DNA of 26,195 nucleotides from a virus (taxonomy: Duplodnaviria; Caudoviricetes): IMG/VR virus record IMGVR_UViG_3300017707_000367, positions 1 through 26,195 of that record, one strand, 5' to 3'. Positions 998 through 13,065 of this stretch are shown in pieces. The position numbers and the translations under genes were made by a program. A model generated the notes under the pieces. The model did not search any database, was not told the DNA's origin, and worked only from the letters and a program-made list of their open reading frames with translations. How positions within the stretch are numbered: position 1 is the stretch's first letter; each line of letters starts with the position of its first letter.

Positions 998-1438
998 ATG
1001 ACACTAAACCAAATAATTCAAAAGATTCAAACGGCAGCCGAAAGCCATAAGATGGTTCACAAGTTTGGCGTTGGTCAGCAGTCAAATATGACTGTTGAGA
1101 ATGTTGAATACTATCCGTTGGTTTGGTTGTATCCAGATGGCTTCAATTTGCAGTCAACTGGAAACTTGATGACATACAACTTTGCATTGCTTGTGATGGA
1201 CAGAGTATTTGAAAGCGAGAGCAACACCATTGAGGTTCTTTCCGATACTGCACAGATTATGACTGACATCTTTGCATTGATTGAAAACAACACACAAGAT
1301 GATGAGGATTTTGAGATTGTGATCAACGGCAATGCATCTCCTTTCTACGATTCAAAAACTGATATTCTCGCTGGTTATGCAATCAACTTCCAAGTCATCA
1401 CTCCTTATCTCCATAATACTTGCGTTGTTCCTGTTTAG
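998..1438 (+). CDS. Putative tail terminator/neck protein
   Basis: 146 aa acidic ORF with YPLVW motif and beta-rich pattern, in head-tail joining context. Confidence 0.5.
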   Translation: MTLNQIIQKIQTAAESHKMVHKFGVGQQSNMTVENVEYYPLVWLYPDGFNLQSTGNLMTYNFALLVMDRVFESESNTIEVLSDTAQIMTDIFALIENNTQDDEDFEIVINGNASPFYDSKTDILAGYAINFQVITPYLHNTCVVPV

Positions 1439-1661
1439 TTGGTTGTGGGCGTTCTTCAATTATGATGAACCAGTCCGTTATATCAAACCACTAAATGTTG
1501 AGATGCACGAAAGGATTATAGTGAAGGAGAAAATCAAAAGAATGCGTCTAATTGATTCAATCAATCACTTTGATACGATATACCTTGACACTTTCAAACC
1601 TTCAGCAGAGGGTCTAAAAAAGGCAATAGGTTTGCACATCCACTTGGATACCACTCTATGA
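1377..1661 (+). CDS. Hypothetical membrane-anchored protein (i-spanin-like topology)
   Basis: N-terminal hydrophobic helix LLISIILALFLFSWLWAFF followed by a charged region; start uncertain (1332 or 1377); ATGA-coupled to 1658. Confidence 0.5.
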   Translation: MQSTSKSSLLISIILALFLFSWLWAFFNYDEPVRYIKPLNVEMHERIIVKEKIKRMRLIDSINHFDTIYLDTFKPSAEGLKKAIGLHIHLDTTL

Positions 1662-2497
1662 AAAACAATAACATCATTGTGATCCCAAAGCCGTGGGAAG
1701 AAACTAAAGTTCTTTTGATCTCGGATTTGCATTGGGACAATCCAAAATGTGACAGAGATTTGTTGAAGAAACATCTTGACGAAGCCTTGAAAGGAAACAA
1801 TGATGTGTTGATCAATGGTGATTTGTTTTGCTTGATGCAAGGTGCATACGATCCCAGGAAAAGCAAATCGGACATAAGACCTGAACACAATGTTGCAAAC
1901 TATTTTGATGCCATCATCAATACTGCTGTTGAATGGTTTTTACCATATGCACATATCATCAAGTTTATCGGATACGGCAATCACGAGACAAGCATCTTGA
2001 AGCGACAAGAGACCGATATCATTGAACGCTTTGTGACTTTGTTAAACTATCGGGGAGGTACAGCAATTCAGGTGGGCGGATATGGTGGATGGGTGAAATA
2101 TCAATTTAACCATCACTCCAAAAAGATTGGATACAACATTAAGTATATGCACGGGTTTGGCGGTGGGGGTCCTGTAACTCGTGGAACTATCCAGCACAAC
2201 CGGATGTCGGTGAATGTTGAAGGGGCTGATGCGATTTGGATGGGGCATGTTCACGAAGATTACGAGATGACATACACCGTGGAATACTTGTCAGCCGTTG
2301 GAACTGTTTTGCTTCGTGACATTTTAATGATTCGTACTTCAGCCTACAAAGAAGAATACGGAGATGGTTCAAAGGGTTGGCATGTTGAAAGAGGTGCATC
2401 ACCAAAGTTCACCGGTGGTCGGTGGTTGTATATGTTGCCCACAAGAACCGAGAAAGGTGACAGAATAATTCGGGCATACACACACAAGACAATATGA
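1658..2497 (+). CDS. Calcineurin-like metallophosphoesterase
   Basis: Motifs SDLH, NGD, GNHE, MHG and GHVH in canonical order. Confidence 0.9.
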   Translation: MKNNNIIVIPKPWEETKVLLISDLHWDNPKCDRDLLKKHLDEALKGNNDVLINGDLFCLMQGAYDPRKSKSDIRPEHNVANYFDAIINTAVEWFLPYAHIIKFIGYGNHETSILKRQETDIIERFVTLLNYRGGTAIQVGGYGGWVKYQFNHHSKKIGYNIKYMHGFGGGGPVTRGTIQHNRMSVNVEGADAIWMGHVHEDYEMTYTVEYLSAVGTVLLRDILMIRTSAYKEEYGDGSKGWHVERGASPKFTGGRWLYMLPTRTEKGDRIIRAYTHKTI

Positions 2498-2748
2498 TCA
2501 AGGTTCAAATCATACACGAGACCAAGAACGACAACTGGATGGGTTTGATTGAAGGAGAATCCGACATCATACAAATCTTGGAAGATGGGATGGTTGATGA
2601 ACATCAAATCGTTGCCATATCGCAGTTGTTTGAGAACACCCAACTTTATATGCGAGGCGGTCACATAATCTTGATTGAAGAAAACTATTATACCTTTGTT
2701 GTCAAATGGATGCAGTCAACCCAACACACTACAAGCAAGGCGAAATAG
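2494..2748 (+). CDS. Hypothetical protein
   Basis: 84 aa ORF, ATGA overlap with the upstream gene. Confidence 0.6.
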   Translation: MIKVQIIHETKNDNWMGLIEGESDIIQILEDGMVDEHQIVAISQLFENTQLYMRGGHIILIEENYYTFVVKWMQSTQHTTSKAK

Positions 2749-2942
2749 AATGTATTGATGCCATTGAATCTGCCACCATCAAAAAGAAAGGATTGGTTGC
2801 GGTTTGCACTGGTAACATCATCAAGTACTTGTGGAGGTGCGAAGACAAGAACGGATTGGAGGATTTGTACAAAGCGAAGTGGTATCTTGACAAGCTCATC
2901 GCAGAAAAAGAAAAACAATCCAAGAAGAATGCTACCTTATAG
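2706..2942 (+). CDS. DUF3310 (SaV-like / T7 gp1.7-like nucleotide kinase family) protein
   Basis: VNPTHY...IECIDAI...GNIIKYLWR...KNGLEDLYKAKWYL signature. Confidence 0.85.
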   Translation: MDAVNPTHYKQGEIECIDAIESATIKKKGLVAVCTGNIIKYLWRCEDKNGLEDLYKAKWYLDKLIAEKEKQSKKNATL

Positions 2943-2943
2943 G

Positions 2944-3300
2944 ATGAAAGCAATGATAAAAATATCAACCTATGGGTTAATTTTCTTCATCTTTTTTGGA
3001 AAAATTCATGCACAAGTCCTGATTGATACAAATACAATCAAACAAGCCAACACATATTTGGTCAAAGGTGCGATTGCAAGGGAACAAGTCACGCATTTAC
3101 GCAAAATTGTGACATCGGATTCCATCATTATTGCTGAACAAGATTCGGTCATCACCAAACAAAAGTCAAATATCGCATATCTCAATGCGGAGAATGATTC
3201 ACTTGTGAAGCAAAATAAAGCCATCTCACGCACTTTGTCCGTGTTCAAGGGTATAAGTATAGGTTTAGGGATTTTAAGCGTTTTAATGTGGCTACAATAG
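2944..3300 (+). CDS. Hypothetical exported coiled-coil protein with C-terminal membrane anchor (possible spanin-like)
   Basis: Signal-peptide-like N-terminus ending IHA|Q, heptad-rich middle, C-terminal GISIGLGILSVLMWL. True start likely 2944 or 2953 rather than 2755. Confidence 0.5.
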   Translation: MKAMIKISTYGLIFFIFFGKIHAQVLIDTNTIKQANTYLVKGAIAREQVTHLRKIVTSDSIIIAEQDSVITKQKSNIAYLNAENDSLVKQNKAISRTLSVFKGISIGLGILSVLMWLQ

Positions 3301-3824
3301 ACATTAACAAACTGCCTGATGCACTTGATACATACTTGGATGATGTCAATCAAGGCTCACTCCTTCAACAAATCATCGTTGATTGGTGGAACAAGAAGGT
3401 GATTCCACCCATTTGGGCGAATCTTGACAACAAAAACATCAATGCGTCTTCAGTTCTTCGCCAATCTTTTGTTCCCGGACAGATCACCAAATCACCCACA
3501 TCCATCAACACAATCCTTCTTGCAGAGGATTACTGGGAATTTGTGGAATACGGAAGGAAGCCAACAAGAAATGGTCACACCGAAGGCACTCCCTATTTGT
3601 GGCAGTCAATCAAAGAATGGATGGCATACAAAGGAATCAAGCCACCACAAACAATGACCTACGATTCAATGGCGAAGGCAATCGCAAACAAGATTCACCG
3701 AAGAGGAACGAAGGCACAACCATTCCTTGAGGATGCGTTCACCGAATCAATACAGATGGAATTGGTGAATGAGTTGAATGCTCGTTTCGGAGATTTGATA
3801 TTCTCGGAAGACATAAAATTGTAA
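3288..3824 (+). CDS. HK97 gp10-like tail completion/neck protein
   Basis: ASSVLRQS...YWEFVEYGRKP...IKEW...KGI...AIANKIHRRGTKAQPFL pattern typical of gp10-like neck proteins. Confidence 0.65.
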   Translation: MATIDINKLPDALDTYLDDVNQGSLLQQIIVDWWNKKVIPPIWANLDNKNINASSVLRQSFVPGQITKSPTSINTILLAEDYWEFVEYGRKPTRNGHTEGTPYLWQSIKEWMAYKGIKPPQTMTYDSMAKAIANKIHRRGTKAQPFLEDAFTESIQMELVNELNARFGDLIFSEDIKL

Positions 3825-3841
3825 CAAAAAGAAAAGTTTAT

Positions 3842-3872
3842 TTGCATAATAGATAAGTTTATTTTACTTTTG
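3842..3872 (+). promoter_or_regulatory. Bacteroidota-type sigma promoter (-33 TTG / -7 TAnnTTTG)
   Basis: TTG 3842-3844, 20-nt spacer, TACTTTTG 3865-3872; ATG at 3881. Confidence 0.7.
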
Positions 3873-3880
3873 CTCTTGTT

Positions 3881-4066
3881 ATGGATTACAACAAAGCAAT
3901 TGAAACAATTAAACTGAAACGCAGACAAGGGCTATTTCAAATAGTCGCTCGTAAAACAGGTGTATCACTTCCAACGGTTCGCAAGTATTTGGTTGAGGGA
4001 AACATCGTTTCACCCAAAGCAAAAGCCGTCATTGAAATTGCATTGAGGGAGGTGAACAATGATTGA
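3881..4066 (+). CDS. Small HTH transcriptional regulator (Cro-like)
   Basis: IVARKTGVSLPTVRKYL helix-turn-helix pattern; first gene of the early operon. Confidence 0.7.
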   Translation: MDYNKAIETIKLKRRQGLFQIVARKTGVSLPTVRKYLVEGNIVSPKAKAVIEIALREVNND

Positions 4067-4316
4067 AGCAACAATCAACGGATGGATTCTCACAATCGGT
4101 GGGGATAAGTATGTTTACATTGACAAGCAAGTTGATGACTATTTACTTGAGCATCACTTTGATGAACTTGAACCGTACCTGATCAAGCGAGATGTGTATT
4201 TCGGTGGATGCGTTGAGACCAATTTAGTGGGTATTGAGACGGAAAGATTCTTCTATCTTGAACCCGACAAGTTTACAGTATTATTTATGCTCGGACACAA
4301 AACAAATTTCCTATGA
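4059..4316 (+). CDS. Hypothetical protein
   Basis: 85 aa ORF overlapping both neighbours; GGAGGTGA at 4048-4055. Confidence 0.65.
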   Translation: MIEATINGWILTIGGDKYVYIDKQVDDYLLEHHFDELEPYLIKRDVYFGGCVETNLVGIETERFFYLEPDKFTVLFMLGHKTNFL

Positions 4317-4849
4317 ATAAATCAGAATCAATCAAGAACATCGCTGGTGCGTTGGTAAAATTCCAAGCATCGGTGAGCAAGGTAGCAAAGGAAGCCAACA
4401 ATCCTTTCTTCAAATCCAAGTATGCAAGTTTGGCGAACATACTGGACACAATCCAAAAGCCATTGAGCGAATGCGGTTTGGCAATCAGTCAGTTCCCTGA
4501 TGAGAACGCACTCACAACCATCATCCTTCACGCTGATTCGGGCGAGTGGATGGAATCATCCTATGTGATGCCGGTTGCAAAACAAAATGATCCACAAGCA
4601 ATGGGAAGTGCGATGACCTACGCACGGAGGTATGCACTTGGTTCAATCCTAAACTTGAACATTGATGATGATGATGATGGTGAGAAAGCAATGGGAAGGC
4701 AGATTCCAAAGAAAGATGAACTCACACCAAAGCATCCATCGTGGGCGAAAGCAGTTGAACATTTGAAGACAGGCGGAATGATGACCGATATCACAAGCAA
4801 GTTTGAGGTATCTCCGGTGAATATGAAACTTTTAATTGGCGAGAAATGA
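4313..4849 (+). CDS. erf: ERF-family single-strand annealing protein
   Basis: NPFFKSKYASL, GL..SQ, H.SGEW, PQAMGSAMTYARRYAL...DDDG signature. Confidence 0.92.
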   Translation: MNKSESIKNIAGALVKFQASVSKVAKEANNPFFKSKYASLANILDTIQKPLSECGLAISQFPDENALTTIILHADSGEWMESSYVMPVAKQNDPQAMGSAMTYARRYALGSILNLNIDDDDDGEKAMGRQIPKKDELTPKHPSWAKAVEHLKTGGMMTDITSKFEVSPVNMKLLIGEK

Positions 4850-5493
4850 ATCAGTCACATCCAGTTATTCACACTTCTTTGAACGAAGAAGATTGGCAAA
4901 GGTTGAGAAGTTCACGCTTCACCGCTTCCGAAATCCACAAACTGATGGGAACTCCGAAAAACAAATCGGAGTTCTTGTCGGAAACTGCAAAATCATTTGT
5001 CTTTGAGAAGGCAGCGGAATACTTAACCGGTGCGAAATCCGAGATCTATGGTCGTGCTTTGGATTGGGGCAAGGAACACGAGAAGGAAGCCTTCCACTAT
5101 TTCTCACAACAAACCGATGAGTTCTTCACATACTACGGTGCAGAGACATACACCTTCATCACTTATGGCGAATGGGGTGGGTATTCACCTGATGCACTCG
5201 GTCACCAGTTGGTAGAAATCAAATGTCCGTTCAATTCAGGCAACCACTTGCAAAACTTCTTCATCCAAAACAATGAGCAGTTGAAGAGCAAACGCACGGA
5301 GTATTTTTGGCAGATGCAAATGGGAATGATTGCAACCGGATTGGAAGAAGGTTTGTTTGTCAGTTATGATCCACGAATGCCCATCGGCAAGAAGCTCACA
5401 ACCACTCTCATCACTTTGGAAGAGGACATCCAAGAAATGATTGATGAAAAATTGACCTACGCTGGGGAGTTGTTTTTGTCAATCACAAAATAA
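4846..5493 (+). CDS. YqaJ-like (lambda exonuclease family) recombination nuclease
   Basis: W..LR..RFTASEI, WGKEHE..A, SPD, EIKCP, Y.WQMQ..M motifs. Confidence 0.92.
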   Translation: MNQSHPVIHTSLNEEDWQRLRSSRFTASEIHKLMGTPKNKSEFLSETAKSFVFEKAAEYLTGAKSEIYGRALDWGKEHEKEAFHYFSQQTDEFFTYYGAETYTFITYGEWGGYSPDALGHQLVEIKCPFNSGNHLQNFFIQNNEQLKSKRTEYFWQMQMGMIATGLEEGLFVSYDPRMPIGKKLTTTLITLEEDIQEMIDEKLTYAGELFLSITK

Positions 5494-5527
5494 ATCGTTC
5501 ATTCACAAAGTCAATCAGAAAATAAAT

Positions 5528-5558
5528 TTGCATAAGTGAAAGAAAGTATGTTGTTTTG
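5528..5558 (+). promoter_or_regulatory. Putative Bacteroidota-type promoter
   Basis: TTG 5528-5530 (within TTTGCATAA, identical to 3841-3849), 20-nt spacer, TTGTTTTG 5551-5558 (1 mismatch to TAnnTTTG); ATG at 5563. Confidence 0.5.
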
Positions 5559-5562
5559 AACT

Positions 5563-5769
5563 ATGGCACTTGACATAATTTATCCAATCGTTTTAACACC
5601 CATCGTTTTTGCGGTGGGTTACTCTATCCATTGCATTAAGAAGGCAATGAACAAAGAACTTCCTGAAGCCAAACCATACCAGTTTGAACGGGATCAGTAC
5701 AATCCGGAGTTTGACCAATTCAGTCAAACCATATTCAATCACAAATTCTACAAAGGAAAAGCAAAATGA
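5563..5769 (+). CDS. Hypothetical small membrane protein
   Basis: 68 aa with an N-terminal hydrophobic segment. Confidence 0.65.
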   Translation: MALDIIYPIVLTPIVFAVGYSIHCIKKAMNKELPEAKPYQFERDQYNPEFDQFSQTIFNHKFYKGKAK

Positions 5770-6056
5770 TACTAACAATCGCACTTGGTTTGACTTCATC
5801 CGTCTTCGCATATAGATTATATACGAATGAGAAAAGGTCACAAGATTTCATCAAAGAGTTTGACCGTCTTAATCGCATTAATAGGGATTTAGATGAGATG
5901 GTTTGGTCAATGAAGATTGATTTGCAACAATCAAAGAATGAGACAGTAATGGCGAAGATGGAACACGAGAAGACCAAACAAGAACTGGAAGATAAAATTC
6001 AAACTTGGCAGAACCAATTTACAGAACTAAACAATGTTAAAGGCAAGAGTAATTAA
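5766..6056 (+). CDS. Hypothetical membrane-anchored coiled-coil protein
   Basis: Short N-terminal hydrophobic stretch then heptad-rich; ATGA-coupled. Confidence 0.65.
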   Translation: MILTIALGLTSSVFAYRLYTNEKRSQDFIKEFDRLNRINRDLDEMVWSMKIDLQQSKNETVMAKMEHEKTKQELEDKIQTWQNQFTELNNVKGKSN

Positions 6057-6171
6057 AGCGACAATCAATTCAATTGAGAAATGGCGTGTGTACTTCGCTG
6101 GTGAATTACTCGCCACCTTTGAAACGGAAAAAGATGCACGAGATTACGCAGAATTTATAGACAGACAATGA
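6034..6171 (+). CDS. Hypothetical 45-aa protein (not in ORF track)
   Basis: MLKARVIKATINSIEKWRVYFAGELLATFETEKDARDYAEFIDRQ; fills the gap; ATGA-coupled to 6168. Confidence 0.65.
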   Translation: MLKARVIKATINSIEKWRVYFAGELLATFETEKDARDYAEFIDRQ

Positions 6172-6199
6172 GCAACAATAAACAACAAACGGCAGTGGA
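6168..6199 (+). repeat. Cassette start repeat A (copy 1 of 3)
   Basis: ATGAGCAACAATAAACAACAAACGGCAGTGGA; near-identical copies at 6701-6732 and 12865-12893. Confidence 0.9.
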
Positions 6200-6416
6200 C
6201 ATCCTATGTGGAAAGTTAGCAATGAAGTTAGGCATACCACAAGCAATTACTTTTTACATAGACCATCAAGAAGAAATCCGGGAAGCCAAAGAAATGCACA
6301 AAAAGGAAATAGAAGATGCTTGTAAATCATCTATTGCAAGTTGCGGAATGGGGCATATTTTTATTGAACTACCCGAACAATACTACCAAGAAACCTACGG
6401 AGGAGGTGAGCAATGA
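6168..6416 (+). CDS. KQQTAV...TYGGGEQ family microprotein 1
   Basis: Starts MSNNKQQTAV, contains AKEM, ends TYGGGEQ. Confidence 0.75.
   Translation: MSNNKQQTAVDILCGKLAMKLGIPQAITFYIDHQEEIREAKEMHKKEIEDACKSSIASCGMGHIFIELPEQYYQETYGGGEQ
6391..6416 (+). repeat. Cassette end repeat B (copy 1 of 3)
   Basis: AAACCTACGGAGGAGGTGAGCAATGA; identical at 6555-6580, 1 mismatch at 6945-6970. Confidence 0.95.
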
Positions 6417-6580
6417 ACGACAAAATAAAACAACTCCTTGAAAATGCCGAGCAATCGGATGCAATAGCAATAAACAAATGGCGTATTGAAAACCGAGAGC
6501 AACTAAGAAAAGAGCGTAAAGAAAAACTCAAGGAACTAATGGGAAAAGACAAACAAACCTACGGAGGAGGTGAGCAATGA
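6413..6580 (+). CDS. 55-aa microprotein ending TYGGGEQ (not in ORF track)
   Basis: MNDKIKQLLENAEQSDAIAINKWRIENREQLRKERKEKLKELMGKDKQTYGGGEQ; bounded by two B repeats. Confidence 0.75.
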   Translation: MNDKIKQLLENAEQSDAIAINKWRIENREQLRKERKEKLKELMGKDKQTYGGGEQ

Positions 6581-6714
6581 ATAATTTAATATGGTTTACG
6601 GTAGGTGCAGTAGCAAGTTATATTGTATCTCCAACAATTAGAATGTATGTTGAAGTATTCAAGAAAATGAGCAAAAATGCAAAAAGCAAAACAGACGGAG
6701 ATGACAAACAATAA
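6577..6714 (+). CDS. 45-aa single-pass membrane microprotein (not in ORF track)
   Basis: MNNLIWFTVGAVASYIVSPTIRMYVEVFKKMSKNAKSKTDGDDKQ; starts in a B repeat and stops inside an A repeat. Confidence 0.7.
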   Translation: MNNLIWFTVGAVASYIVSPTIRMYVEVFKKMSKNAKSKTDGDDKQ

Positions 6715-6970
6715 ACAACAAACGGCAGTGGATAGAATAGTAAATCTTTTAAACAAAGAAGGGTTTGCTCCTGTATTAATTGAGAAAGAAATTAAGTCAT
6801 TCACAGAAATGGACAAGGAACAAAGTAACGCTAAAATAAACATGGCAATTAAAGAGTTTGAAACTCTGAAATCAAAAGCAAATTCATTAAAAGATATAGT
6901 GTATTTCGACGGTGTTTTGGCAGTATTAGATTCAATTAAAAACAAAACATACGGAGGAGGTGAGCAATGA
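6701..6970 (+). CDS. KQQTAV...TYGGGEQ family microprotein 2
   Basis: MTNNKQQTAVDRI...KTYGGGEQ; start placed at the A repeat (6701) rather than 6677. Confidence 0.75.
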   Translation: MTNNKQQTAVDRIVNLLNKEGFAPVLIEKEIKSFTEMDKEQSNAKINMAIKEFETLKSKANSLKDIVYFDGVLAVLDSIKNKTYGGGEQ

Positions 6971-7110
6971 ACATCAGGGTTAAACACAGAAACACGGAGA
7001 TAGAACTTGAAGACATCAGGACCATCAATCACAATCTTGATATAATCAGTTTGATCAAAGCCATCTCACAACAGATTCAAGAAATAATCAGCAATGAAAA
7101 CACCAATTGA
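6967..7110 (+). CDS. 47-aa hypothetical protein (not in ORF track)
   Basis: MNIRVKHRNTEIELEDIRTINHNLDIISLIKAISQQIQEIISNENTN; starts in a B repeat. Confidence 0.65.
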   Translation: MNIRVKHRNTEIELEDIRTINHNLDIISLIKAISQQIQEIISNENTN

Positions 7111-7267
7111 CCGCTTGGTTGAACACCTACGCACGGAGTTCCCCGATTTGGATATTAGCCCACACCTGATCTTCAACTTTAAGCAACTTGAAAAAATGGA
7201 GCAACAACTCGCATACAATGCCGGGTTTGCCAATGCAAAGAAAATCTATTGTGAAAAATCTAACTGA
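7094..7267 (+). CDS. 57-aa protein, possibly a divergent KQTAV-family member (not in ORF track)
   Basis: MKTPIDRLVEHL...KQLEKMEQQLAYNAGF; resembles QTAVDRI...KEME...Y..G of the family. Confidence 0.6.
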   Translation: MKTPIDRLVEHLRTEFPDLDISPHLIFNFKQLEKMEQQLAYNAGFANAKKIYCEKSN

Positions 7268-7400
7268 TAAACAAGCACTATGTTGGGCAATCGCAATCCT
7301 TCGTGATGATATGCGTTGCACCTGGAGACAGATTGCCCAGCGAATGCAATTCAGCGAATGCAAAGTGCGTCACCTTTACACCCAAACAAAACCCCTATGA
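7251..7400 (+). CDS. Small HTH-like DNA-binding protein
   Basis: TWRQIAQRMQFSECKVRHLY resembles a sigma region 4-type HTH; GTG start at 7251 is tentative. Confidence 0.5.
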   Translation: MKNLTDKQALCWAIAILRDDMRCTWRQIAQRMQFSECKVRHLYTQTKPL

Positions 7401-7405
7401 AACAA

Positions 7406-7436
7406 TTGGAACAATCAAATTGATTTGCTATATTTG
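7406..7436 (+). promoter_or_regulatory. Bacteroidota-type promoter of the HNH/replication operon
   Basis: TTG 7406-7408, 20-nt spacer, TATATTTG 7429-7436. Confidence 0.7.
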
Positions 7437-7481
7437 TATAGTGATTGACAAATGCGGGTTTGTCTATAATCAAAACTTTTT

Positions 7482-7533
7482 GCCTTCCTGATAGATGCGT
7501 TCCCGCAGACCTTCTATCTCGAAGGCTTTTTTT
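7482..7533 (+). terminator. Intrinsic terminator/attenuator in the 5' leader
   Basis: GCCTTC(7482-87)/GAAGGC(7521-26) plus GATAGA/TCTATC stem, followed by a T-run 7527-7533. Confidence 0.7.
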
Positions 7534-7544
7534 ATGCAAAAAAA

Positions 7545-8069
7545 ATGAATACACAAGAAGAATGGAAAGCAATTGCGGAATGCAATGGTCAGTACTATGT
7601 CTCCAGTTGGGGGCGGGTTAAAAGTTTTAAAGGTGGAAAGGAAAGAATTTTAAAATATGCACTGTATAATGGTTATCCATATGTGCATTTAAAATTAAAT
7701 CAATCTAAAGATAAAGTAATTTCAATACATCGTTTAGTTGCTATCTATTTTTTGGAAAATCCTAAAAACAAAAAAACTGTTAACCATAAGGATGGCAACA
7801 AATCCAACAATCATATTGATAATCTTGAATGGATGAGTCAAAAAGAAAATGTCCAACACGCTTGGCAAAATGGATTGTGCGAAAAGCAACGATTGGCTAT
7901 GGGCAAAGCAAAATCAAAGCCGGTTATTGATATTGTAAGTGGTAAGAAATACGATTCACTAACTTTGGCTTGTCAAGATATTGGTGAAAATTATAGCACT
8001 CACAATACTCGTATATTTTATCAACGTAAAAATCAACGCTTTTTTTATTTAAACGATGGCAACAGATAA
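7545..8069 (+). CDS. NUMOD4-HNH homing endonuclease
   Basis: EEWKAI...YYVSSWGRVKS (NUMOD4); IHRLVA..F...VNHKDGNKSNNHIDNLEW (HNH_3); more AT-rich than its flanks. Confidence 0.93.
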   Translation: MNTQEEWKAIAECNGQYYVSSWGRVKSFKGGKERILKYALYNGYPYVHLKLNQSKDKVISIHRLVAIYFLENPKNKKTVNHKDGNKSNNHIDNLEWMSQKENVQHAWQNGLCEKQRLAMGKAKSKPVIDIVSGKKYDSLTLACQDIGENYSTHNTRIFYQRKNQRFFYLNDGNR

Positions 8070-8610: not shown

Positions 8611-9839
8611 ACACAGAAAGAATCATCCTATCCAATATGCTGTTTTACGATGACGCAAAACACTTCCTTCCAAGAATCAACAAGAACTGGTTTACAGATT
8701 CAATGTCATCCAAATTGGTTGAAGTTATGACAGAGATGTACTACAACAACGAAGCCATTGACTATGTGAGTTTATCCAAACACTTTGACAGAGTTCAAGT
8801 GCTGGAGATTATCCAACTACAACAACAAGCATCCGGCATCACAGACATCAAACCACACCTGATGAAACTTGAACACGATTACATCAAGAAGCAAGTTGTT
8901 GAAGGCGTTTTGTCTTTAGATGTAACAAAGGAATTGAATGAGCTTGTGACTGACATTCAAAATGTAGTTGAACGCACAACATTCTCAACACACAAAGAAC
9001 CATCCAGTATTGTCAAGGTGACTAACAAGGTTGTTGATCAAATCGTTTTCAATGCACAGAATGGTGGAAACTTGACTGGAAAGCAAACCGAATGGAGATT
9101 TCTTGACAAGTACATTGGTGGATACAATGAAGGGGATTTGATTGTGGTTGCTGGAAGACCGGGAATGGGAAAGACGGCAATTGCTTTGACCTTAACAAAG
9201 GAGTTTGCACAGATTGGTGGGAAGGCATTGTTCATTTCACTTGAGATGTCCAATGAGCAACTTGCAAAGAGATACATTTCCCTGATTGGAGACATTGCAA
9301 ATTGGAAAATTCGCAACGGACAATTGAGAGAGAATGAAATCCTTCAGGTGTGTGATATTGCCAACAGACAAACGATTGAGTTCTTCATTGATGATGATGT
9401 GGATTCTCGCATTGGACAAATCAAAGCCAAAGCCAAACTTCACAAATCAACGAAGGGATTGAACTTGCTGGTGATTGACTACATTCAGTTAATCAAAGGA
9501 ACAAAGACAAACCGTGAACAAGAGATTGCAGAGATATCACGAACGCTGAAACTCCTTGCAAAGGAACTTAAAATCACGGTGATGATACTTGCACAGTTAT
9601 CACGGAAGAGTGAAGAGAGAGCAGACAAGAGACCGATGTTGAGTGACCTTCGGGAATCAGGTGCAATTGAACAAGATGCCGACATCGTGATGTTTCCATT
9701 CCGACCAATGTACTATGAGCAAGAAAAACCCGAAATGGAAGAAGCGGAGTTGATAATCGCAAAGAACCGAAACGGAGAGTGCGTGACAATACCGACATAC
9801 TTTGAAGGAATGTACACAAGTTATAAAGAGAAGATATGA
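8607..9839 (+). CDS. dnaB: Replicative DNA helicase (DnaB family)
   Basis: Walker A GRPGMGKT, SLEMS, IDYIQL, AQLSR, RP.LSDLRESGAIEQDAD, IAKNRNG. Confidence 0.97.
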   Translation: MNTERIILSNMLFYDDAKHFLPRINKNWFTDSMSSKLVEVMTEMYYNNEAIDYVSLSKHFDRVQVLEIIQLQQQASGITDIKPHLMKLEHDYIKKQVVEGVLSLDVTKELNELVTDIQNVVERTTFSTHKEPSSIVKVTNKVVDQIVFNAQNGGNLTGKQTEWRFLDKYIGGYNEGDLIVVAGRPGMGKTAIALTLTKEFAQIGGKALFISLEMSNEQLAKRYISLIGDIANWKIRNGQLRENEILQVCDIANRQTIEFFIDDDVDSRIGQIKAKAKLHKSTKGLNLLVIDYIQLIKGTKTNREQEIAEISRTLKLLAKELKITVMILAQLSRKSEERADKRPMLSDLRESGAIEQDADIVMFPFRPMYYEQEKPEMEEAELIIAKNRNGECVTIPTYFEGMYTSYKEKI

Positions 9840-11098
9840 AACACGGTTCATTGTTTAGCGGAATAGGTGGGTTTGATCTCGCTGCCGAATGGATGGGATG
9901 GGAGAATGTCTTTCATTGCGAATGGATGGAGTTCCCACGAAAAGTATTGGACTATCACTTCCCTGATGCGGATAGTCACATTGATATATGTAAAACTGAT
10001 TTCAAAAAATATGCAAACAAAATTGACATTCTTACTGGAGGATTCCCCTGCCAACCATTCTCCCTTGCCGGGAAAAGAAAAGGCACGGATGATGAACGCT
10101 ACTTGTGGGGCGAAATGCTACGAGCAATTCAAGAGATTAAACCCAAATTCGTCATCGCAGAAAATGTCTTTGGTATCACGAATATTGATGGCGGATTGGT
10201 ATTCGAGCAGGTGTGCCTTGACTTGGAAACTCAAGGGTACGAAGTTCAGCCGTTTATTATTCCAGCTTCAGCCAAAAACGCACCGCACCGAAGAGACCGA
10301 TGCTGGTTTGTTGCCTACGCCAACGGCAATGATGGACGAAGCACCAATAGAGAAAGTGGATGCCAGGAATCAAAAACAAATGGAGAAGGGGAACAGTCCG
10401 TTTATTCTCGGACTTGGACAACAAGCAATGAGGGGGATGCTACCGACACCAAGAACTGCGGATGCAGAAGGGGGATGTGTCAAAAATGTGCAGATGGAAA
10501 ACGGGAATTATTTCAGAACCAACAAGGAGGGTGTGAGATGGGGTGTGAAATTGAGGGATGTTGTGGAGTCGGGGATGCTACCAACACCAACGGCAATGGA
10601 TTCAACGAACGCAACGGCAACAATGAAATCAACACAAGTGAAGGAGGGGAGTATGCACTCGGTGACATTGACAAGAGCAATGGCAATGGGGATGCTACCG
10701 ACACCAAAAGCAATGGAAGCTCCATCGGCAAGTTGGGAGAATCGCAAACCAAACAGCAAGTTCAAACCAGGAGTGACATTGACGGATTTGAAAGTGTGGG
10801 GGATGCTACCGACACCAACGGTATCGGACAAGAACGGAAGCGGAAGCAAGGAGGCGTTGGAAAAAAGGGGGAGAGGGGAACGCAACGATTTAGGCAGTTG
10901 GGCAACAATGAACACCGATGGGAAAAATTCCCAACTCAATCCCCGGTTTGTGGCGGAGATGATGGGATTCCCACCGAACTGGACGGAATTACCTTTTCAA
11001 AGTGGAGAGCAGAATCAATCAAAGGATATGGGAATGCCATAGTTCCACAAATCGCATATCAACTTTTTGAAATAATACAAGAACTAAATGCAAAATAA
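9836..11098 (+). CDS. C5 cytosine DNA methyltransferase, main (alpha-like) polypeptide
   Basis: Motif I FSGIGG, IV GFPCQPFS, VI ENV, VIII HRRDRCWFVA, X KGYGNAIVPQ; no recognisable motif IX in this frame. Confidence 0.93.
   Translation: MKHGSLFSGIGGFDLAAEWMGWENVFHCEWMEFPRKVLDYHFPDADSHIDICKTDFKKYANKIDILTGGFPCQPFSLAGKRKGTDDERYLWGEMLRAIQEIKPKFVIAENVFGITNIDGGLVFEQVCLDLETQGYEVQPFIIPASAKNAPHRRDRCWFVAYANGNDGRSTNRESGCQESKTNGEGEQSVYSRTWTTSNEGDATDTKNCGCRRGMCQKCADGKRELFQNQQGGCEMGCEIEGCCGVGDATNTNGNGFNERNGNNEINTSEGGEYALGDIDKSNGNGDATDTKSNGSSIGKLGESQTKQQVQTRSDIDGFESVGDATDTNGIGQERKRKQGGVGKKGERGTQRFRQLGNNEHRWEKFPTQSPVCGGDDGIPTELDGITFSKWRAESIKGYGNAIVPQIAYQLFEIIQELNAK
9867..11042 (+). CDS. Overlapping alternate-frame methyltransferase polypeptide (beta-like) with five LPTP modules and motif IX
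   Basis: 391 stop-free codons in the +1 frame; ends LNPRFVAEMMGFPPNWT (motif IX-like); true start unknown. Confidence 0.75.
   Translation: MGLISLPNGWDGRMSFIANGWSSHEKYWTITSLMRIVTLIYVKLISKNMQTKLTFLLEDSPANHSPLPGKEKARMMNATCGAKCYEQFKRLNPNSSSQKMSLVSRILMADWYSSRCALTWKLKGTKFSRLLFQLQPKTHRTEETDAGLLPTPTAMMDEAPIEKVDARNQKQMEKGNSPFILGLGQQAMRGMLPTPRTADAEGGCVKNVQMENGNYFRTNKEGVRWGVKLRDVVESGMLPTPTAMDSTNATATMKSTQVKEGSMHSVTLTRAMAMGMLPTPKAMEAPSASWENRKPNSKFKPGVTLTDLKVWGMLPTPTVSDKNGSGSKEALEKRGRGERNDLGSWATMNTDGKNSQLNPRFVAEMMGFPPNWTELPFQSGEQNQSKDMGMP
10433..10818 (+). repeat. Four dispersed 20-bp direct repeats GGGGATGCTACCRACACCAA
   Basis: Copies at 10433, 10571, 10688 and 10799 (spacings 138/117/111); a diverged fifth copy near 10305. 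Confidence 0.92.
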
Positions 11099-12161: not shown

Positions 12162-12400
12162 TTGGGATTGCTTGTTTGGCAATCATCATCGTAAACTTTG
12201 GCAAACCAGCCGATCTATTAAAACGCTATCTGTACGGAAGCGATTATTCAAAATGGAAGCGAATGAAACCCCTTGACTGTGCGTTCTGCTTGTCGTGGTG
12301 GTTGGGTTTGTCCTTTTTCCTATACACATACGGTTGGGTGGGGATACTTTACGCATCCATCGCCACCGTGATTGTCGCACTATTAGAAACTAAACTATGA
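12146..12400 (+). CDS. DUF1360-like membrane protein
   Basis: KPLDCAFCLSWW motif with hydrophobic helices. Confidence 0.6.
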   Translation: MHTEIIGIACLAIIIVNFGKPADLLKRYLYGSDYSKWKRMKPLDCAFCLSWWLGLSFFLYTYGWVGILYASIATVIVALLETKL

Positions 12401-12606
12401 CACCACAAGAGAAAGCGAAAGAATTGGTTGACAAATTCACCGTAGTTGGATTGCAACAACGAAACGAAGGGATTCAATGTGCATTGATTGCGGTTGATGA
12501 GATAGTAAAAGAAATTGAATGTAACGAATTTGATTTTCAATCAAATGTTCCAATGTCGGTGTATACATATTGGAAAAATGTAAAACAAGAAATAGAAAAA
12601 CTATGA
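12397..12606 (+). CDS. Hypothetical protein (MTP.EKA.EL family)
   Basis: MTPQEKAKEL...CALIAVDEI...YWKNVKQEIEKL; paralog at 14104. Confidence 0.75.
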   Translation: MTPQEKAKELVDKFTVVGLQQRNEGIQCALIAVDEIVKEIECNEFDFQSNVPMSVYTYWKNVKQEIEKL

Positions 12607-12875
12607 GCAACATTGAATTTATACTATCACTACAACCGTTGTACGACAACTGGAAGAAAACACAAGTATTTGCACCATCACCAGAACAAGGGGCAATCCT
12701 GAACAATGTCCACCGTGAAATCTTTGGAAGGAACTTGCCGAATTGCAGTACCTGTATAACCGAAGCCTTGCACTCACTTTTGATATGGGCAAACCAACAA
12801 CAAGAAGCCATCACCAAAGCACAACTTGCCGATGATGAGCAGAAACCAAAGAGGAGAAGAAAGAATGAGCAATAA
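12603..12875 (+). CDS. Hypothetical protein with CxxC
   Basis: MSNIEFIL...CSTC; ATGA-coupled start at 12603. Confidence 0.7.
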   Translation: MSNIEFILSLQPLYDNWKKTQVFAPSPEQGAILNNVHREIFGRNLPNCSTCITEALHSLLIWANQQQEAITKAQLADDEQKPKRRRKNEQ

Positions 12876-13065
12876 ACAACAAACGGCAGTGGAGTGGTTA
12901 TGGGAAATAGCATATAATCGAGAATTAACCGTTGAAGATTGGAAACAAGCCAAAGAAATGGAAGTGATGGGAAAGGAAACGAGTTATGCCGATGGTTACA
13001 AAGAAGGTTATAAACGAGCAATGGAATTGGTAGAGTGGGGAATTACAAAAAAAATAAAGGGCTAA
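12865..13065 (+). CDS. KQQTAV family microprotein 3
   Basis: MSNKQQTAVEWL...QAKEME; begins at an A repeat. Confidence 0.75.
   Translation: MSNKQQTAVEWLWEIAYNRELTVEDWKQAKEMEVMGKETSYADGYKEGYKRAMELVEWGITKKIKG

Follow-up and report, generated by a model that had tools for sequence, protein, structure and literature searches.

Integrons and CALINs hold their genes between attC sites whose bottom strands fold into hairpins, and a tyrosine recombinase of the IntI type encoded in cis is optional for a CALIN. Shufflons (Rci/sfx) are composed of segments that a tyrosine recombinase inverts at inverted sites. The array described here, at 6168-6970 of a 26,195-bp virus record (this whole stretch of DNA is called the window), resembles both of them in part. 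As in an integron or CALIN, small exchangeable genes are arrayed behind one putative upstream promoter and set apart by a fixed junction, and as in a shufflon, protein halves appear to be exchanged in frame at a short coding repeat. However, the array lacks an attC-like hairpin, an integrase and a fixed base for crossover, and its junctions, which we term A, M and B, are coding, so that the integron-like nature proposed in an earlier, sequence-only reading fits only loosely. Likewise, unlike those of shufflons, the sites are all direct, exchange would take place between genes and genomes, and the tyrosine recombinase domain PF00589 was not found in the records searched. Since hairpin and tyrosine recombinase are missing and the crossover points are variable, the array is not an integron, and these features speak against a shufflon too.

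Another parallel is provided by the PeSL of T4-type phages, described as intergenic units of a promoter and a stem-loop, closed by an SD and a start codon, which lie in variable regions and at which recombination removes, adds or replaces genes without an integrase, mini-circles having been demonstrated (PMC2839356; PMC4122927). Here too, small genes of unknown function are flanked by short repeats, gain and loss map to these repeats and there is no integrase; judging by its letters, B also closes with an SD and a start codon on its 3′ side. In contrast to what the accessible text of those papers describes, our junctions lie inside coding sequence, including a mid-gene junction that reassorts halves, and are common to phages of 31-295 kb that have no other DNA in common. 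Six sigma-70-like promoters were predicted in 5400-7700, against 7.0 in shuffles, and none of them over A or B. The Bacteroidota promoter motif TAnnTTTG was not found between 5523 and 7429. No stem-loop terminator was detected in the repeats, the sole terminator-like site being at 7510-7525. Because neither promoter nor stem-loop was detected within the repeats, the array is not a PeSL; by analogy, it would work like PeSL shuffling but within coding sequence.

Relaxed recombination by Rad52-like recombinases such as Red-beta, RecT and Erf (PMC3945230) bears a likeness in that short identity is enough for it, and Erf and an exonuclease are encoded side by side 0.7 kb upstream of the array. Nevertheless, that work, in its accessible text, deals with homology scattered over temperate phages of enterobacteria and not with dedicated repeated junctions, and ERF is absent from the other carriers found here. 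As regards B only, the SAS of Cluster K mycobacteriophages (PMC3203893) is also a non-palindromic, SD-containing repeat placed before the ATG of small non-structural genes. SAS are proposed to be translation or regulatory signals, however, nothing in them corresponds to A or M, and cargo exchange at them is not described in the accessible text of that paper. No description of the family or of the junctions was found in the literature searched, which consisted mostly of non-subscription papers without their supplements. What is distinctive here is that the junctions are coding, that half-genes reassort and that small and jumbo phages share the system. From the sequences compared, we consider this recombination-junction system to be real and well supported. 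Our main reading, to which we give a probability of about three in four, is that the short junctions A, M and B are common to many freshwater phages and that homologous recombination at them swaps small genes and half-genes, the products probably remaining translatable.

The array, its setting and the A-M-B family

The window has an estimated completeness of 84%. Four close relatives of 30-32 kb (97-100% complete) carry a terminase 86-99% identical to that of the window, all four also carry ERF, and we take the phage to be about 31 kb in size. The array sits in a run of small genes bounded by YqaJ on one side and by a NUMOD4-HNH gene, DUF6291 and DnaB on the other; the NUMOD4-HNH endonuclease gene (7545-8069) is missing or replaced in many close relatives. 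The position about 0.7 kb downstream of ERF and YqaJ given by the sequence-only reading was accurate, both genes being confirmed and lying 675 bp upstream. Metagenome runs containing the array were freshwater or without label, and no RNA dataset was among those listed. The features are as follows.

4048-4062, + strand: B-core variant with one mismatch, in a stop/start overlap upstream of ERF; second landing site
4313-4849, + strand: ERF single-strand annealing protein (PF04404, E 1.2e-26), candidate recombinase in the lineage
4846-5493, + strand: YqaJ-like exonuclease (PF09588, E 1.4e-12), anchor for gathering relatives
6034-6171, + strand: conserved upstream anchor gene (pN/pS 0.17), its stop overlapping the first ATG of the array
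6168-6199, + strand: junction A1, N-terminal block MSNNKQQTAV, with stops in both other frames
6168-6416, + strand: gene x, 82 aa, family chimera (front half 6200-6281, back half 6297-6390)
6282-6296, + strand: junction M1 (EAKEM), internal crossover block
6391-6416, + strand: junction B1, comprising TYGGGEQ, stop, SD-like motif and next ATG
6413-6580, + strand: gene y (55 aa), cargo outside the family onto which a B end is grafted (pN/pS 0.19)
6555-6580, + strand: junction B2, bridged by an X1 contig (6497-6730)
6577-6714, + strand: gene z (45 aa, GC 0.30), likewise cargo outside the family
6701-6732, + strand: junction A2, which gives z its stop in another frame
6701-6970, + strand: gene w, 89 aa, family member, its halves reassorting at a degenerate M (about 6803-6820)
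6945-6970, + strand: junction B3, spanned by X1 (6703-7002) and also by X2, an independent study (6713-7108)
6967-7267, + strand: two downstream small genes (6967-7110 and 7094-7267), variably present in relatives
12865-13065, + strand: another family gene, the third, which marks a second array site (A core at 12871-12893; M at 12946-12960; back half not of the B type)

The three copies of B are exact and the 23-nt core of A recurs at 6177 and 6710, neither block giving any match in 100 shuffles; a third exact A core at 12871 starts the gene 12865-13065, and all matches to A and B in the window are on the + strand. The four array ORFs of 45-89 aa that had been proposed all exist. Concerning the content of B, the peptide TYGGGEQ, the stop and the overlapping ATG are present as had been read, whereas a ribosome-binding role for its GGAGG is doubtful because the host is probably a member of the Bacteroidota. 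A supplies a stop as well, as z ends within A2 with a 14-nt overlap. Since A has stops in both other frames, joins to it yield either a stop/start overlap or an in-frame fusion: among 223 A starts, 104 had a 4-nt overlap, 64 a 14-nt overlap and 12 an in-frame fusion, and 43 had no incoming ORF. X1 is possibly the run from which the record came, and the independent study X2 also contains w. No contig bridging B1 was seen among the matches listed, and a contig joint that skips 6171-6966, and may hold other letters there, was present, among the matches listed, in two of four metagenome runs. In freshwater runs, contig depth summed over 6658-6731 (A2) and 6362-6509 (B1/y) rises into the thousands, which would make the junctions very common in freshwater communities. 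Further upstream, the 85-aa gene behind the B-core variant (4059-4316) exists as two divergent alleles that alternate among near-identical relatives.

The sequence between the repeats had been taken to be unrelated. This holds for y and z, which are non-family cargo, but not for x and w, which belong to one family with M as its conserved middle block. The aligned sequences place A at the start, M in the middle and B at the end of a single large family of small proteins, predicted to be acidic in 50 of 50 aligned members (pI 4.05-5.88). Its layout is A, a variable segment, a QAKEMEK-type block (M), a second variable segment and a B-type tail, and most genes that start with A or end in B are members. 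A search with a 50-member profile retrieved 7,135 clusters (50% identity) at E 0.001 and 902 at 1e-10. None of the 50 members matched Pfam, one matched PHROGs (E 7e-4) and four single weak matches were obtained in NCBIfam, no model for the family being found in these collections. The predicted structure of x is all-helical, with four helices (pLDDT 75); Foldseek gave no match to it in the PDB, and the best VIA row (Z 4.9, rmsd 2.4 over 51 residues) was, like the others, generically helical.

The halves of the family genes are distributed as if they moved separately, with M between them; this third junction, like the exchange with unrelated phages, had escaped the sequence-only reading. Out of 22 matches to x, 18 cover the front half only and end at 6291-6308, four start at 6283 and none covers both halves; the back half is found at 99% identity in another locus (L022) behind a different front half. 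Similarly, among 65 homologues of w, 36 match the front half only, 18 the back half only and five both, and in one protein (P0159) the front half of x is joined to the back half of w. Altogether, 88 genes comprised 36 front modules and 40 back modules in 60 combinations. In two relatives (L157 and L164), A/B arrays are found downstream of the first site, at a distance of several kb. The phrog_21441 gene at 12397-12606 (TPQEKA type) represents another abundant small family, which occurs in the same arrays and takes A or B grafts. Yet another family, starting with MKLYTEEQ and carrying an internal PIELPSDEEI block, is found among the downstream genes of L501-L504; its halves also seem to reassort, which suggests a fourth junction.

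Exchange among relatives and between unrelated phages

Relatives were gathered by means of YqaJ (80 loci, 86-99% identity), and 36 of them span both anchors. The interval between the anchors ranges from 29 to 1,507 bp in these 36 and falls into 14 length classes, and the array as found in the window is present in none of them. The sequence-only reading anticipated that cargo would change at the repeats; in the alignments of relatives, insertions, deletions, duplications and chimeras do end at junctions, and homologous recombination is the process that we infer behind them. As many as 99 of 102 distinct breakpoints lie at most 5 nt from a junction, against 30% expected, a comparison for which a binomial P overstates the case because the breakpoints share ancestry, and so are not independent, and the loci were mostly picked for carrying a junction. 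The same alleles are found again in independent samples. A is present in 11 of the 36 spanning relatives and the B core in six, so the site varies without these blocks too. Indeed, genes are also gained and lost in the slot nearest to the promoter and where neighbours meet in a bare CAATGA overlap, and the empty forms of the site join at such an overlap. The first slot behind the putative promoter (5500-5563) is hypervariable, with about 20 alleles (L123-L202); it has a duplicated short start of the ACTATG type, and A and B are absent from it.

Cargo outside the family is moved as well. In relatives, the B core upstream of y is kept under several different genes, and the 3′ end of y varies, being fused to the A family or to other short tails. 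Near-identical copies of z in phages of 233 and 295 kb terminate in the B core instead. Unrelated genes carrying A or B grafts include phrog_21441-like and lipoprotein-like genes and one for a 629-aa CHU_C protein; the counts of 57 A-start and 27 B-end non-family clusters are upper bounds, as the regular expression used for M misses some members. At the 4048 site, one relative (L161) has a family gene inserted between 20-bp direct repeats and another (L193) a block of four genes, the first of which is y. A 1.08-kb tandem duplication with 98.2% identity, bounded by A-type starts, is present in the large phage G001 and not in G002. No cassette-sized tandem copy of y was seen in 505 sequences, and no y-to-y joint, the signature of a circle, among the joints listed for contigs (not reads) of four runs. 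In the G002 locus L501 (204500-210500), two jumbo-phage proteins of about 630 aa with type IX secretion CHU_C domains flank the array, the second beginning with a partial A block.

In five phages of 112-295 kb, the only DNA in common with the first 20 kb of the window consists of junctions and small-gene cassettes, the latter being 96-99% identical. Thus z with its flanks (152 nt) is 96% identical in G001 and G002, and a two-gene block of 491 nt is common, at 97% identity, to the close relatives L187 and L194 and to the 295-kb G002. The GC content of z and w (0.30-0.31) is below that of ERF and YqaJ (0.44) and near that of the surroundings of large-phage arrays (0.32-0.35), which suggests import. 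The link with ERF made by the sequence-only reading is not specific, as ERF was found in none of ten non-relative carriers, six of which are less than 90% complete. RecA-like matches were obtained in five of these ten, three of them above the cut-off, and Rad52/Sak (PF04098) in 0 of 14.

Junction DNA, a proposed mechanism and competing explanations

If the repeats were conserved as peptides only, their synonymous sites should be saturated. IMG/VR was scanned with patterns degenerate at third positions, and these sites were near-invariant in the stretches listed, which were 125 out of about 370 for one pattern and 123 out of about 190 for the other. Among the matches listed, a 24-nt stretch of B is the same in 44 of 47 cargo clusters and A keeps ACG in 60 of 75 (background 13%). 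M lay outside the scan pattern; among the matches listed for it, GCC, AAA and GAA are used in 43 of 43 front-half clusters, for a window background of 14, 53 and 63%, respectively. The modules between the junctions do gain synonymous change, the front half of x having nine such changes across 14 alleles, with pN/pS of 0.09-0.29 (the two extremes being two front halves) indicating purifying selection; the proteins therefore appear to be made and selected. Comparison of these sequences shows the junction blocks to be constrained as DNA.

Which process might move the cargo? We propose that a general recombinase of the phage or of its host catalyses the exchange, ERF/YqaJ in this lineage and, in other carriers, host or RecA-like enzymes. 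An identity of 15-45 bp would suffice for it while phages co-infect a cell or replicate, and repeated crossovers would keep the junctions homogeneous. The SD-like motif of B may then serve homology alone. The Erf/Exo of D3 is described as an efficient recombinase, and minimal pairing lengths of 23-27 bp for Red-beta and 31-34 bp for RecA are given (PMC3945230). Matched graft lengths vary from 17 to 33 nt or more for A and from 15 to 41 nt for B, and of 159 B-core junctions, 41 are B-A composites. The Red-beta minimum is reached by A, by the composite and by full B, but M (15-18 bp) and the B core on its own (15 bp) fall short of it, which is a weakness of the proposal.

This shortness for homologous pairing, together with the near-invariance of the DNA across unrelated phages, is what one would expect if the junctions were sites of a site-specific recombinase or DNA-binding protein yet to be recognized, in the manner of integrons or shufflons. 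We hold this to be highly improbable: no hairpin was predicted on either strand (11 folds, z-scores from -0.72 to +1.40), A, M and B have no sequence core in common, graft lengths vary, and PF00589, which covers tyrosine recombinases only, was found in none of 11 records, four of them at least 90% complete, while controls were recovered in 14 of 14. Selection might alternatively act on translation signals and protein ends, with microhomology joins surviving at gene boundaries and the repeats arising as by-products. Such an origin would be in keeping with B being, by its letters, a perfect SD plus an ATGA overlap (duplex -17.7 kcal/mol), with A being A-rich and unstructured and with the variation of other operon slots that carry neither. 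It does not explain M, which lies mid-gene, has no role in translation start and is synonymous-invariant in all 43 clusters listed, unlike the front half of x. Moreover, a strong SD was found at 2 of 42 starts examined outside B and its variant, and Bacteroidota ribosomes are reported not to use the SD, even at overlaps (PMC6728339; PMC10798248; PMC7797042). On balance, we regard it as unlikely.

The family gene could also be a selfish linker whose ends spread by homology, its proteins being of little weight. A is indeed grafted before genes that keep their own Met, including that of the 629-aa CHU_C-domain protein, and the array is wholly absent from many relatives; but purifying selection on the two front halves and the acidic nature of every aligned member make this explanation very unlikely. 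Finally, much of the reassortment might be an artefact of assembly, mixed-population graphs having been mis-joined at shared short blocks. All the evidence comes from metagenome assemblies, in which exchange is read from sequence and no event was witnessed. The A2 and B1 bins reach about 1,000-5,700 in summed contig depth against about 5-300 for single-copy parts, one locus (L124) carries a 125-bp repeat with 100% identity and another (L500) is an insert with flanking gaps within a bacterial contig. Against this stand the recurrence of alleles in independent samples, the bridging of B2 and B3 by X1 contigs and of B3 by X2, and the 1.8% divergence between the duplicate copies of G001. Besides, copies of A, M or B mostly share about 30 nt or less of exact identity, which is below the usual final word sizes of assemblers. 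The chance that assembly created the pattern is thus slight, and homologous recombination at A, M and B remains the reading that we prefer.

Host, protein function and significance

The host is probably a member of the Bacteroidota, as suggested by several sequence hints. Flavobacterium phages account for 91 of 171 records with blastn matches, all of them short, and Cellulophaga and Polaribacter phages also appear; a related array is flanked by CHU_C genes, one family homologue comes from a Bacteroidota MAG, and SD motifs are scarce. A single GTDB match to B, in a Chitinophagaceae MAG, was given little weight, as it adjoins an N gap and looks mis-assembled; in that contig (L500, 2700-2830), a B junction and a phage gene fragment lie beside the gap, probably through a scaffolding artefact. 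No tblastn match to x or to another family member was found among 50,697 records of isolated phages, so there is no cultured model at hand. Elsewhere in the window, a C-5 DNA methyltransferase is overlapped by a long second open frame of 391 aa (9836-11098 and 9867-11042), in which repeats of 33-59 nt (10433-10831) encode repeated LPTP motifs; the gene may be a methyltransferase that has been split or frameshifted and that carries tandem repeats for target recognition.

The proteins are small, acidic, selected and variable and are encoded in an early-type operon, features that suggest host interaction or anti-defence. We tentatively see them, at somewhat less than even odds, as early host-interaction proteins in which a conserved helical frame holds two exchangeable variable segments that would be diversified against host defences. 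PADLOC gave weak matches only for the family (E 0.002-0.005), neighbours in the ESM Atlas were viral clusters without names, and the BFVD rows were uncharacterised phage proteins with E 0.09 or worse. A wider and more doubtful possibility is that freshwater Bacteroidota phages of 31-295 kb share a community-wide standard of parts, indifferent to the recombinase, in which three coding junctions turn the thousands of small acidic helical proteins of this one unannotated family into a combinatorial library, front by back, of host-targeting binders, with unrelated genes recruited to the pool.

How do unrelated phage lineages trade small accessory genes? This long-standing question is usually answered by rare illegitimate recombination. 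Here, the candidate sites of exchange can be named and placed on a map, and they can be mutated. Junctions located within genes would create new proteins by swapping halves, and they would link small and jumbo phages. With about 7,100 clusters and no Pfam, PHROG or NCBIfam model, the family represents a large block of freshwater phage sequence that awaits explanation, and its modular form may ease screening for host targets.
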